Of a DNA stretch of 64,000 bases, positions 15,688-57,570 are shown piece after piece. The stretch is taken from contig CAXHJY010001069.1 of assembly GCA_964016885.1 (NCBI GenBank), positions 1-64,000 of the forward strand, read 5' to 3'. A model generated the notes under the pieces. The model saw only the letters and a list, made by a program, of their open reading frames with translations, had not been told where the DNA came from and did not search any database. Source of the DNA: Eledone cirrhosa (Eukaryota). A program made the translations under genes and the position numbers. Positions within the stretch are counted from its first letter, which is position 1. Each line of letters begins with the position of its first letter.

Positions 15688-15812
15688 TTAATCTGTTATT
15701 TTAATAAATATTTGCTCTATGGTTTTTATATATTTGATATATATATATTATCCTTATCGAGCGCTCTTCGGATTTTAGTCTTCACATTTCTTATTTACTT
15801 TATATATATAAT

Positions 15813-15995
15813 TTTATCTAGGGTTCAATCGGGGGTAACCACAGTAAGTAAGGTACTCGATACAAAGCAGAGTATAAATATTTAATATAGAAAAGGCTTC
15901 TACAGGACTAGAACTGCTTCATTCGGGAGAAATCATCAGGAAGCTTCCTGATGATTTCTCCCGAATGAAACAGCTCTAGTCTTGTAGAAGCCTTT

Positions 15996-16004
<9 letters not shown>
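15813..16004. mobile_element. Family-A element with 61-bp-arm palindrome (15883-16004) centred on AAGCTT
   Basis: Arms are reverse complements with ~3 mismatches; distal tail 15813-15882 matches 20247-20315. Confidence 0.9.
15943..15991 (+). ncRNA. Type I hammerhead ribozyme (family A, intact core)
   Basis: GCUUC-CUGAUGA-U UUC UCCC GAA U-GAAA-CAG cucuaguc UUG-UA-GAAGC; GUA cleavage predicted after 15986; the mirror copy has GAAG instead of GAAA. Confidence 0.8.
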
Positions 16005-17680: not shown

Positions 17681-18411
17681 GCAGGATATTAAGAGTTAAA
17701 TAACTCGCTGGAGGCTGGCTTACACATCAACATCTCCAAAACAAAATGTATGACAACTGATAAAACTAAGCCCATCTCCAAGTCACATTCTACAACCAGC
17801 AAATTGCTCAAGTTACGGAGTTTGTATATCTCGGTCACAAACTATCATCAAACAACAATGGAATGAGTGCTGCGCAATATCGAATCACTCTAGGTTTTGG
17901 CAGCTTTCAACAAGAACAAGGAAGTACTAACATCAAAACGAGTTTCCTATCATTTGAAGGCTAAGATCTTTGATACTTACATCCTACCAGTTGTGTTATA
18001 TGGTCTTGACTGTGTCAATTGGACACAAGATCACTTCAGAAGCTCTCTACATTCCAGAACCACATCATGAGACTTATGACTAGCAAGCGGCTCAGCGATC
18101 GTATCTGTATCAGTGAGCCGCTCAACATTACCAAACTTAGACCAATTACATCAATTGTCAAGTCAAGAGTACTCAAACTATACGGCCATATAAAAAGATC
18201 AACTCGTGGTGTGAGTAGGTTATTCCTGGAAGGAAGGTTGGCTGGTAAGAGAAGCAGAGGCCGGCAGCCAAAACTATGGCTTGATAATGTCAACTTATGG
18301 ACTGGACTTTTCTCTTTGAACTCTGCTGTTGGTGGTCGAACTTTGTGGAGAGAGATATCACATGTTAATGTGCAGTCTGCAACTGGCGGAGTTTACCGTA
18401 AAAGTAGTAGT
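17681..18411 (+). mobile_element. RTE-clade LINE 3' relic (RT C-terminal region, frameshifted)
   Basis: Translates GLHINISKTKCM...FVYLG...ILPVVLYG...LKLYGHIKR...GKRSRGRQPKLWLDNV; ends in a (GTA)n tail. Confidence 0.9.
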
Positions 18412-18685
18412 AACTGCAAGTTTAAGGCGGCAAACAAAAACAGCAAAAAACAAAAACAAAAACAAAAAAGACATGAGCAGGTAGTTGAGGTGGTTACTAC
18501 TAACACACATACACCAACACTACTACCATCACCACTCTCACCACCACTAACACACATACACCACCACCACCACCACTGCCACCACCACCACTACTACCAT
18601 CACCACTCTCACCACGACCATCACTCCTCACCAGCGGATGTAACTAATTAATTTGTTCAACTGGAGAGACTGTAAACAACTTGGA

Positions 18686-19450: not shown

Positions 19451-19973
19451 TGATTAATGTTCAGAGCCATCCTCAGCATTCTCGTGTAGCACCCATCCAC
19501 CATCTGAGTGAGTTTCTTGGTCAGTCTCTAAGTCCCAGACCCGTACAACAACACAGACTCCACTACAGCAACGAAGAGACGGATCTTCAGGTCTTTATGA
19601 AGGTCCGACTTTCACACCGATCTCAAACTGTGGCACGCCGCCCAGGCTTTGCTCTTCCTCTCGACCGCATCATCTTCTGTATTCCCAATCTTCGCTCCCA
19701 GATACAGGAAGTCCTCAACCAATTCTAGCGGCTTCCCGCCTACATTAGTAATCTTCTCTGGCTTCTTAATATTCTCTACCAGATACTTCGTCTTAATCTC
19801 ATTTATTCTCTGCCCCACACTCATCGACACAGACTCCACCTCCTGAATCAACTCCTCTGCCTCCTTCTCTGTGTTTGTCACCAGAACTATGTCGTCGGCA
19901 AATTCAGCATCCGATATCTTTTTCGCCTTAACTCTCCTGCTCTGAGCCGGTGTTACAGTAAAGCCTCCCAAAC
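19451..19973 (-). mobile_element. RTE-clade LINE RT fragment, inverted segment
   Basis: FADDIVL catalytic motif, INEIKTKY, FLYLG, ESVLLYGS, DGCYTRMLRMALNIN; internal stops. Confidence 0.92.
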
Positions 19974-20218
19974 GTCAGCTCGAGAGTAACACAGAGAGAC
20001 TGAGGTTAACTGGACATGCTCACCGACATCCAGAGTTGACACTACACTCAGTGCTCCTGTGGGAGACCCTGCATGGACACACTGGAAGAGGAAGACCGAG
20101 GTTGACATATGTTGATGTCCTAAGGACAGACACTGGTCTCTTGGAGGCGCAGGACATGGCAACGATAATGAGGGACAGAGACCGCTGGAGAGAACTCGTC
20201 CATGGATCTCGGGAATTT
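19974..20218 (+). mobile_element. Same RTE LINE, 3' segment in forward orientation
   Basis: LRLTGHAHRHPE...LLWE...GRGRPRLTYVD...MRDRDRWRELV. Confidence 0.88.
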
Positions 20219-20246
20219 TACCCGCCCTATATATATACAGATATAT

Positions 20247-20380
20247 GTTTATCCCGGGTTCAATCAGGGGTAACCACAGCAAGTAAGCTACTCAATACAT
20301 AGCACAGTATCAATATTTAATATAGAAATGGCTTCTACAGGACTAGAACTGTTTAATTCGGAAGAAATCATCAGGAAACC
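20247..20380 (-). mobile_element. Family-A hammerhead repeat, long form
   Basis: Reverse complement GGUUUC-CUGAUGA...UAAA(G12U)-CAG..CUG-UA-GAAGCC, then ATTAAA, ~70-nt tail and (AT)n. Confidence 0.85.
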
Positions 20381-20974
20381 CATCAGGCACATCTCCTCCT
20401 TCTCCCTCCCTCTCCCTTTCCATGTCCTTCACCCTCTCTCCCCTTCTGTAGCTCTTCTCCTTTCCCTCTACTTTTCTCCCTCTCTCTCTCTCTACTCTGC
20501 TCTCTATTTACCTCACACCACACCCCCTCCTGTTCTTTCTAGAGTTCTACCTCTTATCTTCCACTAGAGTTCTCCGATAGTTGCCTCACCCCCATCCACC
20601 CCCACCCCACATAGACACCGAGGTGCTCCTCCTCCCGCTCTGTTCCTCCTCTATCATATGTTCGGATTTGGTTTCACATTGAAAGATAGTTTTGCTTTAC
20701 TACTTCCGCTTCATGCTAAACTTCCGGTGGGTCTTTTGAAATCTTCCGATCTGGGATTTCACGCATGAGCGCGTTACATGTGTGTGATCATGTGTGTGTA
20801 TGTGTTCTTGTGTGTTTGCAGACGCGTGTGTGTATGTGTGTGTGTGTATGCGTGTGTGTGTTCTAGTGAACGTGTGTAGATAAATGTGTGTATAGTTTAT
20901 TTAATTGTATACGCATAAGCAAAGACAGACGGTAATAACATACCGCATATAGTTATTTGTATCAGGTATGTCTG

Positions 20975-23980: not shown

Positions 23981-24392
23981 TAAAAAAATAATGAATAAAA
24001 CAATGAAACAGTTCCTTATATTAAACAAAAAAAGTTCATTATTTAACGATCGTTTCTAGGATATATATGTGTTAGAATTGGCATGCATATTCAACAGATC
24101 TATGTACAAAATTATACAAAATTATACAAACTATCAAAATTAAATATACATACCAAACACATATATATGGCATATATATATAACACATAAACGGCATATA
24201 TATGTGTTTGGTATGTATATTTAATTTTGATAGTTTGTATAATTTTGTATAATTTTGTACATAGATCTGATGAATATGCATGCCAATTCTAACACATATA
24301 TATCCTAGAAACGATCGTTAAATAATGAACTTTTTTTGTTTAATATAAGGAACTGTTTCATTGTTTTATTCATTATTTTTTTAATATTTTAT
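23972..24392. repeat. 198-bp inverted repeat, 25-nt spacer, with hammerhead-like motif
   Basis: 23972-24169 vs 24195-24392 are reverse complements (one mismatch seen, in the core); + arm has CUGAUGA 24267-73 ... GAAA-CGAUCG-UU 24308-19. Confidence 0.9.
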
Positions 24393-49852: not shown

Positions 49853-50220
49853 TTAAAGTCTGTTAATATGTTTGGAGCCGCTGTCGTTGTAGGGTTAATT
49901 AAACGGGTAAAATCGTTAGATTTCAATTATGCGCCATTTTCATTTTAATAACTACGATCTTTCAACGGAAAACTGGAAAGTTCCATGTCCTCAGCCAACC
50001 TCACTTCGGTTTCGGTATTTTAAGGTGGATACCTTTCATCACAGTGCACATTGGGACGAAATAAACAGCTAGAGACAATATATATATTTAAGTCTTCACA
50101 TTTATTATTGTTACTATATATATATAAAGAATGATTTTCCAAATTGGAACAGAAGGGAAGAAGGGACGCACAGTTAAGGTAATAAGGTATTCAATATATT
50201 TGCAGAGAAGGTACAGATTA

Positions 50221-50296
50221 ATTTCATATAGAAATGACTTGTACAGGACTAGAACTGTAGGACTGCTTCGTTCATTTAAAATCTTCAGGAATGTCA
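50221..50296 (-). mobile_element. Diverged family-A hammerhead repeat
   Basis: atatagaaatgacttgtacaggactagaactg...tcttcaggaa; core CUGAAGA, internal duplication. Confidence 0.6.
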
Positions 50297-56344: not shown

Positions 56345-57570
56345 AACTTGGCAGAGTCGGTAAAGCATCGGACAAATGCTCAACAGTGTTTGTTTAGGAT
56401 CTTTACTTTACATTCTGATTTCAATTCCTACCATGATCTACTTTTACCTTTTCATTCTTCCAGTCTTGATAATATATAGTTATATAGTACCAGTCATGTT
56501 TTGGGGGTAGTTAGAATCGAAAAATTACAACAACAATAAACATTCCACAATAAGGTGGGGGAGGGAGGGCGGAGAACAACCCAAGGGCGACACAGGTACC
56601 CAACCATTCCTGAACCACCCGACACCTCTCTCTTCCTCCTCAACTCAAATCAACTAGTCTACAGGCGCATGCTCAGAGTAGGCCCATTCACACGAGCCAC
56701 TCTCGCTACATTCACCCACCTTTTAGCAAATGTACTGAGGAGAGAGAGCACTTCTCTCTCCTCCACCCTCACCTTTTCTACTTTAGGCACAAGGCCAGTA
56801 ATTTAAAGGGGAAGAGAGTAAGTCGATTAAATCGACGCCAGTACGTTACTGGTACTTTATTTTATCGACCCAATTATTATTCAATTGGTTTTGTTATTGT
56901 GCATTTTTACTCAGCCCTACATATCGGCCCTTGTGGCCAATAAATGAAATCATTTCGATTGGCAGTATCGGTATAAGGTCGGACGCCATGCTTTGTAGCA
57001 TGGAGTTACGGCTTTTATGATCTGAGTTCAAGTTCCGCCGAGGTTAACTTTGCCTTTCATCCTTACGGGGTCGATAAAATAAGGTTCCAGTTATGTACTG
57101 GGGTAATTGCTGGCCTTGTGCCTAAAGTAGAAACAATTATTATTGTGAACATACAAATATATACAGCATATAGAAAATAGGATTGTATACTGCACGTATC
57201 CCAGGCACATATAGCTGTGCTCAGTAATGCAGTAACGGCATATGAGACAACAATAATAACAACAACAATAATAATTGTTTCCAATTTTCGCACAAGGCCA
57301 TCAATTACCCAGTGTATTACTGGTACTTTATTTTATCGACCCCGTAAGGATGAAAGGCAAAGTTTACCCCGGCGGAATTTGAACTCAGACCGTAAAGGGA
57401 CGCAACTGTGCTGGAAAGCATGGCGTCCGACCCTCTACCGATACTGCCAATGTTCAAATTCCGCCGAGTTAACTTTGCCTTTCATTCTTACGGGGTCGAT
57501 AACATAAAGTACCAGTAATACACTGGGGTAATTGCTGGCCTTGTGCCTAAAGTAGAAACAATTATTAATA
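56345..57570. mobile_element. SINE family-1 cluster in alternating orientations
   Basis: Old + copy ~56348-56500; - fragment 56775-56871; + 56959-57144; - 57270-57450; + partial 57452-57570. Confidence 0.85.

Follow-up and report, generated by a model that had tools for sequence, protein, structure and literature searches.

The closest described systems are the endonuclease-bearing Penelope-like elements (PLEs). The accessible parts of PMC8557442 and PMC3846280 describe inverted 5'-truncated copies, optional tails and (TA)n targets for these elements. For an anole PLE studied in vitro, the available sections of PMC11167929 report that uncleaved RNA was the main substrate, that the RNA 5' end set the product length and that the tail mapped to two internal start sites of the reverse transcriptase (RT); both strands of AT-rich targets were nicked and extended, and a dimer was predicted. 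In Penelope of D. virilis, the transcription start is placed at 371, ~120 nt upstream of helix I of the hammerhead, and an intron at 416-491 ends at helix I (portions of PMC4209133 and PMC2377424). The accessible text of PMC8557442, PMC11167929 and PMC3846280 treats the origin of the inverted terminal repeats (pLTRs) of PLEs and the role of their hammerheads as open questions.

The window analyzed here is a stretch of 64,000 nt of AT-rich, microsatellite-rich animal DNA, in which 39,967 bases were masked as tandem repeats; its interspersed repeats appear similar to those of octopus. An earlier note on this DNA had described a mini-element at seven loci, all of which we recovered by blastn at the coordinates claimed (the last one at 62679). 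An nhmmer profile resolved this repeat, family A, into 10 arms across the seven loci (E from 3.8e-42 to 1.5e-6); the profile was built from 8 of the 10 arms, whose scores thus arise by construction. Beyond these 10 arms, no family A match up to E=1 was found in the window by nhmmer, and a window search with a covariance model made from seven arms returned only those seven. The units are 65-135 nt long. Single copies are located at 1591, 20247, 50221 and 62679, while the loci at 8704, 11783 and 15813 are head-to-head pairs.

The pair at 15.9 kb has a left arm at 15813..15943 on the minus strand, which belongs to the long 3' class (the two classes are defined below) and carries the core change A15.1 to G. 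Its right arm, at 15944..16004 on the plus strand, is of the short 3' class, is joined to (AT)n and was detected by blastn and by the profile. In the pair at 8704..8811 the left arm is of the short class and the right arm is decayed and cut off in helix III; this pair has the 5' arm GCUUUC, that of the commonest subtype in public data. The pair at 11783..11920 combines a short left arm with a long right arm (11846-11920), whose ribozyme body is gone through an internal deletion, and both arms have the change A9 to U. The single copies are all on the minus strand. The one at 1591..1648 is of the short class, with its 5' end at U4 of the core and its 3' end on (AT)n; the one at 20247..20381 is of the long class, adjoins a LINE-like remnant at its (TA)n end and carries G12 to U. 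A diverged copy of a second subtype occupies 50130..50296, with the 5' arm UGAC-A-UUC, a 3' arm ending GUCA, an A-U pair at a position that is G-C in the other copies and a long, diverged tail. Finally, 62679..62719 is a tail-only fragment, comprising the last 40 nt only, that was found by blastn and by the profile.

Evidence beyond the window came from four public runs (X1, X4, X5 and X7), placed on the copy at 20200-20420 as the reference; the runs carry three organism labels, the first of which is also represented by RAD reads. We could place 14,297 contigs from X1, 11,168 contigs from X4, 50 contigs from X5 and 10,120 reads from X7, though part of the signal to the left of 20247 is due to the neighboring LINE end and TA run and not to family A. 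Given thousands of reads and contigs under three labels, family A is abundant and common to several species.

A type I hammerhead fold with an intact core was matched by a descriptor at 15943..15991 on the plus strand, with the cut predicted after A15986. Helix I has 5 bp (15943-47/15987-91), CUGAUGA is at 15948-54, helix II consists of a U.U plus 3 bp (15956-58/15963-65), GAAA is at 15967-70 and helix III has 4 bp (15970-73/15982-85), with GUA as the cleavage triplet. The core elements CUGANGA, GAAA and UH are thus found in the order of a type I hammerhead, with three helices. The full descriptor had two matches in the 64 kb, compared to an average of 0.01 matches in each of 200 shuffled versions of the 24,033 unmasked bases. 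The other match, a weak one at 49994 on the minus strand, is a CUGANGA...GAAA pattern with a 6-bp helix II and a weak helix I, and is either a chance occurrence or a decayed hammerhead from another family. Among the 10 arms of family A only one has an intact catalytic core; the other nine have core changes, truncations or deletions. Rfam produced no hammerhead match for 15940-15998 up to E=10 and no hammerhead among 35 matches on 15880-16000, and the best 150 of its 395 matches in the whole window were microsatellite and hairpin artefacts.

Taken alone, the hammerhead fold of 15943-15991 is predicted to be weak (-2.7 kcal/mol, versus a minimum of -5.0 kcal/mol) and to be a minor state (P 0.0012), with predicted probabilities of 0.65-0.69 for the helix I pairs. 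The CUAG palindrome in its loop III is predicted to permit dimers. The two arms at 15.9 kb are predicted to pair into a 57-bp hairpin of -89.6 kcal/mol, and inside this hairpin the predicted hammerhead fold is lost.

Covariation in stem I had been read from the window copies, and this reading failed there. Only one of 13 pairs was doubly changed in seven arms, a number reached in 147 of 500 shuffles; the covariation score was 0.190 vs 0.178, with 122 of 500 shuffles as good. In the register used for that reading, 90.5% of the cells were paired across the seven arms. The commonest 5' arm in the public data, GGC-U-UUC, is one U longer than the 3' arm GAAGCC needs. Because of this ancestral, probably bulged, extra U, neither the UUUC at 8.7 kb nor the U.G at 20.3 kb is a compensation; both simply use it.

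Between subtypes we observed what appear to be compensatory double changes in helix I (GGC-U-UUC/GAAGCC, GAC-A-UUC/GAAGUC and AGAUUC/GAAUCU), read off from public consensus letters and one window copy. That window copy, at 50221, represents the GAC-A-UUC subtype with its 3' arm ending GUC, and it is the only molecule, a decayed one, on which both arms of this subtype are linked. The variant 20331 G>A, which matches the same subtype, was present in 14% of X7 reads and in 6% of X1 and X4 depth. For the AGAUUC/GAAUCU subtype, 967 reads had the GAAUCU 3' arm, and both arms were seen in one tandem joint. Loop II positions were variable in 35-79% of X7 reads, while core positions, except for the reference's own G12 change, were absent among the best 40 of 208 variant rows. 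As far as sequence patterns can tell, the variation of loop II, the quiet core and the compensatory helix I pairs point to selection for the fold in source elements.

The 5' ends had been claimed to stop near CUGAUGA, which we found for nine of ten arms and six of seven loci. These nine arms start -1 to +8 nt from C3, all within 8 nt of CUGAUGA; the exception is the copy at 62679, whose 5' end is ~86 nt downstream of CUGAUGA. In each subtype the boundary falls at the helix I base, although the arm sequences differ. In the public data, 237 and 197 of the 2,975 partly placed X1 contigs break at 20378 and 20377, respectively, the largest X1 loose-end classes among those listed (24 of 610 loose-end rows), and the same positions account for 327 and 125 of the 3,281 partly placed X4 contigs. 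The coordinate convention is fixed by the window copies, with 50221 breaking at 20377 and 8704 at 20378. Since the unique flank of the reference forces reads to break by ~20381, the heterogeneity of the flanks is informative and the break itself is not.

Past the break, the X1 and X4 contigs have 3-5 shared letters and then near-random sequence. The agreement among contig flanks was 0.39-0.43, compared to 0.35-0.36 for random window flanks; 3-5 fixed letters predict an agreement of 0.41-0.45 and so account for the excess over random. Agreement was higher in the RAD run X7 (0.51-0.54), which may be due to shared upstream sequence or to a few deep RAD loci. With near-random flanks past helix I, the boundary looks like the start of an element and not like a stop within a longer template. 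In most copies, the 5' end is the base of helix I and the neighboring sequences are unrelated. The AGAUUC subtype is exceptional: in two different contexts, at least 17 letters that follow UUC are shared, which extends the subtype past helix I by at least 14 nt. This subtype runs past helix I, and therefore the fold does not force a stop.

A splice acceptor was rejected as the cause of the boundary, since spliced copies would have a common upstream exon; in one subtype, CAG is found at the start of helix I, as at the end of the D. virilis intron. We take the helix III loop to resemble a tRNA T-loop. A polymerase III B-box in this loop was rejected as well: it would be only ~33 nt from the start, and no A-box was seen. 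At the 5' junction of the 20247 copy, the 7-mer CATCAGG (20369-20375) recurs 12 nt downstream, at 20381-20387, in what looks like a re-copy of the template's 5' end. All six occurrences of this 7-mer in the window, on either strand, are at family A loci.

The two 3' end classes proposed in the earlier note were confirmed. Short ends near ATTAAA are found at 1591, at 8704, in the left arm at 11783 and in the right arm at 16000, and long ends near GATAAAC, ~67 nt away, at 15813, 20247, 11920 and 62679. The copy at 50221, previously assigned to the ATTAAA ends, continues instead through a diverged long tail to ~50130. As claimed, the 3' ends are usually on (AT)n: in eight of ten arms the 3' end abuts or lies close to an (AT)n-type run, which points to a (TA)n insertion bias, in a window that is itself rich in microsatellites. 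The X7 depth increased in steps from 1991 to 4556 and 6462 across 20304-20327, but breaks near 20311 and 20316 come partly from subtypes with another tail or an insertion, so that the short class is smaller than the step suggests. In three runs, the sequence of the loose ends at 20313 is (TA)n.

Counted from the cut site, the short end is ~20 nt and the long end ~90 nt away, which puts the hammerhead near the 3' end. Across the cut site the X7 depth was level, at 7458, 8573 and 8066 in the bins before, at and after 20336. The lack of a drop indicates that the copies were made from uncleaved or religated RNA, in agreement with the main substrate of the anole PLE in vitro, and speaks against cleaved RNA as the template.

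Two further observations concern the neighborhood of the 3' ends. A 40-nt segment (15772-15811 and 50086-50127; 88% over 42 nt) occurs only immediately past the long 3' ends of two copies that belong to different subtypes, separated from them by a short TA run, and is either a longer 3' class or a second TA-targeting element placed tail to tail. Public joints on 20311-20358 formed head-to-tail units of ~72 nt in three runs; these units combine the ribozyme 3' half with a different tail, without CUGAUGA, and are possibly minisatellites born from family A.

Inversions were observed at three loci, with their centers where the earlier note had put them. The center at 15941..15946 is a zero-spacer AAGCTT (AAG|CTT) with the central GC common to both arms, and the one at 8.7 kb is AAAG|CTTT (8763-8770, centered on 8766/8767). 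Written out, these read GGAA-GC-TTCC and GGAAA-GC-TTTCC, respectively. The third center, at 11.8 kb, is an asymmetric GGAAG|TCC at 11845/11846. Two of the three centers thus have no spacer, and for such a center a simple hairpin snap-back is excluded, as it would always leave one. A long arm is combined with a short arm in two of the three pairs. An inverted 5'-truncated copy next to the 5' end, as in PLEs, is present at three of seven loci.

Strand-switch joints were present in three of the four public runs. Among the 11 strand-switch rows listed (15 of 86 joint rows), symmetric switches at 20376-20378 made up 13 of the 23 X1 contigs, 6 of the 9 X4 contigs and 8 of the 24 X7 read starts. One arm was at the helix I boundary in three further listed rows, and four rows involved 20359/20360 (reference coordinates), a second breakpoint cluster that falls outside the explanation preferred below. 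The helix I boundary is a preferred, not an exclusive, switch point.

The arms of a pair resemble each other. The right arm at 15.9 kb is nearest to its left arm (53/56, compared to at most 51/56 for other arms), a U-rich loop II is common to both arms at 8.7 kb, and A9 to U is found in no arms other than the two at 11.8 kb. The variant 20329 T>A, common to the arms at 15.9 kb, had frequencies of 6-22% in the public runs. With such common variants at one locus, a pair was probably built at insertion or homogenized afterwards.

We see about an even chance that family A is a short, non-autonomous pLTR piece of a PLE, with a boundary produced by run-off and with pairs produced by the joining of two cDNAs. 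The template was likely an uncleaved RNA copied in trans, with its 5' end probably at the base of helix I. A PLE reverse transcriptase-endonuclease would nick an (AT)n run, and cDNA synthesis would begin at one or the other of two internal sites separated by ~67 nt, from which the short and the long 3' classes (the tail) would arise. The enzyme would then read through the uncleaved ribozyme and run off the RNA 5' end, and this would fix the 5' boundary. When both target strands are primed, two cDNAs of one source would meet by their 3' ends (GCC) and could be joined over an overlap of 0-2 nt (the GC of GGC), leaving a zero-spacer palindrome at the base of helix I and yielding pairs of a long and a short arm. 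The inversion point would then correspond to the template end rather than to a ribozyme-induced stall. The boundaries, the junction sequences, the two 3' classes, the copies spanning the cut site and the covariation between subtypes are observed, whereas the RNA, its 5' end, its cleavage, the mobilizing enzyme and the joining step are putative. The lack of shared upstream sequence in most copies and the read-through in the AGAUUC subtype suggest run-off as the simpler cause of the boundary.

The likeness of paired arms could also be explained if, after the same run-off, the end of the first cDNA primed itself or switched template and copied itself, the product being joined to the other target end at the AT-rich short site. 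We regard this as rather doubtful. The similarity of the two arms at 15.9 kb, the shared A9 to U and the U-rich loop II would all follow from it; one arm is readable as a shorter copy at all three loci, if the deletion at 11.8 kb is later; and self-priming is proposed for PLE palindromes in the accessible text of PMC3846280. However, the centers have zero spacers at two of three loci, the commonest public joints (20376-20378) retain UUC on both arms, and a snap-back joint onto 20375 is absent among the 15 of 86 joint rows listed. Moreover, 20329 T>A is common enough in the public runs to be a subtype mark that needs no arm-to-arm copying, and the structures predicted for the cDNA end are weak (-2.4 to -4.0 kcal/mol). 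No special joining step is needed at all if the zero-spacer centers were inherited, i.e., if palindromes formed once or a few times and were copied whole, with single copies as truncations at the hairpin tip. The center type 20378/20378, which recurs in three runs, agrees with such masters. Still, the three loci have three centers and three arm combinations, each with its own shared variants, and we find this origin quite improbable.

The earlier note had favored a stall or template switch of RT at the ribozyme 5' arm; in this model the template would be a longer PLE RNA, and the fold or a protein bound to it would be the cause. Reverse transcriptase travels 3' to 5' along RNA; it would meet the 3' arm of helix I first and open the helix from there, so that the fold is gone when the 5' arm is reached. 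A stall at the 5' arm is therefore an unlikely cause, all the more so as most contigs have no shared upstream sequence, the subtype that has it was copied through the 5' arm, and the hammerhead fold is weak (-2.7 kcal/mol). On the other hand, the boundary is at the base of helix I in every subtype despite the differing arms, and the upstream sequence in one subtype means that longer templates exist. According to the available sections of PMC11167929, the anole hammerhead acts with the help of protein, and a block by a protein bound to the fold is thus conceivable; in the accessible part of PMC4209133, the D. virilis intron ends at the 5' end of helix I, which makes this site a landmark in longer PLE RNAs. 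On balance we consider the stall model improbable; a template switch at the 5' arm may still have occurred, but then at the end of the template. The type I hammerhead, the lack of coding capacity and a few public reads that join head to tail (20377 to 20333, 14 read starts) would also fit a non-LTR retrozyme whose monomers were produced from self-cleaved or circular RNA and then scattered. This origin appears very improbable, as the copies are not bounded by the cut site and have no depth step there, the window contains no family A tandem array, and the units are far shorter than the 150-450 bp given in the available text of PMC7229834. No tandem hammerhead units of 150-450 bp were found in the window, and the head-to-tail joints in public data give units of less than 80 nt.

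Run-off followed by the joining of two cDNAs is thus the reading that we prefer. The link to a PLE pLTR, the fixed 5' boundary and the preferred inversion point of the earlier reading are retained in it and extend to the public reads; the stall is not. Some points are in tension with it, the long tail and the second breakpoint cluster among them. An RNA start at helix I would be atypical, given the start ~120 nt upstream in D. virilis, and the rare A9 to U, present in each arm at 11.8 kb, is easier to reconcile with copying from arm to arm or with later conversion than with two separate RNAs. We found no parent PLE linked to family A: a 23-nt pattern had no match in metagenome, viral and prokaryote contigs, and five short motifs had no match in the accessible part of the PMC8557442 supplement. 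As a tentative and more specific proposal, helix I could form the very beginning of the RNA, with family A being either a SINE-like RNA (65-135 nt) headed by a ribozyme or strong-stop cDNA from a PLE mRNA. If so, genomic copies would map the 5' end of a PLE RNA to the base, and the hammerhead cut would remove the first 45 or so nucleotides. Each zero-spacer palindrome would then preserve the end-to-end joining of two cDNAs from a single PLE dimer, and so directly document the formation of inverted pLTRs.

Other features of the window were also observed. Degraded frames at 3154-2300 on the minus strand, interrupted by a SINE-like insert with a short duplication, presumably correspond to the RT thumb, cysteine linker and GIY-YIG start of a Neptune-type PLE. 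For these frames there was no confirming Pfam match, and a protein atlas had no usable match for 2873-3154. They are on the same strand as the 1591 copy, ~650 nt off, and no direct link between the two was seen. Among 98 of the 175 unmasked frames scanned, Pfam had no RT + GIY-YIG match; there was one sub-threshold RVT_1 match at 19615-19974 (E 2.8e-6, below the curated cut-off) and two further weak matches, none of them PLE-specific. LINE-like remnants are located at 17900-18650 and 19600-20230, and the 20247 copy is in a TA run that ends one of them. Other long, near-perfect palindromes are found at 5728-6035, 6304-6659, 24008-24356 and 57272-57564, several of them flanked by or centered on (TA)n; a scan of these four for a hammerhead core found none. 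A 47-bp satellite array with ~450 copies, 94% matches and a strong strand skew spans 24553-45275.

Judged by its sequence features, family A behaves like a PLE pLTR insertion. With the complex insertions of endonuclease PLEs, as described in the accessible text of PMC3846280 and PMC8557442, it shares head-to-head copies with a palindromic junction, a 3' extension confined to one of the arms, (TA)n targets, the lack of a clear target-site duplication and a hammerhead near the 3' end. It differs from them in having no ORF and units of only 65-135 nt, without the RT + GIY-YIG ORF of an autonomous PLE, in its extension of ~67 nt compared to tails of 30-40 nt, and in 5' ends that are fixed at the base of helix I where theirs are variable. 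Poseidon of Anolis carolinensis (available sections of PMC11167929) likewise has two tail-defining start sites, AT-rich targets and copies of uncleaved RNA, while its ORF begins in hammerhead stem II; the ATGs examined in family A close within a few codons.

The hammerheads of PLEs described in the accessible part of PMC4209133 have the same type I topology and a palindromic loop 3 allowing dimers (CUAG in family A). They also include many variable, dispersed single motifs and opposite-strand pairs from truncated PLEs. Compared to the minimal metazoan motif in that text, helix II of family A is short (3 bp + U.U, no G10.1-C11.1 pair) and helix III has 4 bp with an 8-nt loop; the GUA triplet and the optional bulge in helix I are further differences from the PLE hammerheads described there. 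Metazoan non-LTR retrozymes, in the available text of PMC7229834 and bioRxiv 10.64898/2026.07.22.740005, are also non-coding, carry a type I hammerhead and are probably derived from PLEs, and the axolotl HHR_Amex2 likewise has a U.U pair at the base of helix II (bioRxiv 10.64898/2026.07.22.740005, same portion). Unlike these retrozymes, family A is dispersed as single or inverted copies and not arranged in tandem units of 150-450 bp, and its boundaries are off the cut site.

The architecture of family A is therefore mostly known, with inverted pLTRs, tails and (TA)n targets, and its new feature is the fixed boundary at helix I; we found no report of a family bounded in this way in the literature covered, with most subscription papers and Repbase outside the search. 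Its many short copies with a fixed 5' boundary, two 3' sites and distinct subtypes provide natural junctions that can separate fold-back from the joining of two cDNAs, and the template is small enough for the existing in vitro PLE assay. Set against the known systems, family A adds a tractable test case rather than another class of elements.
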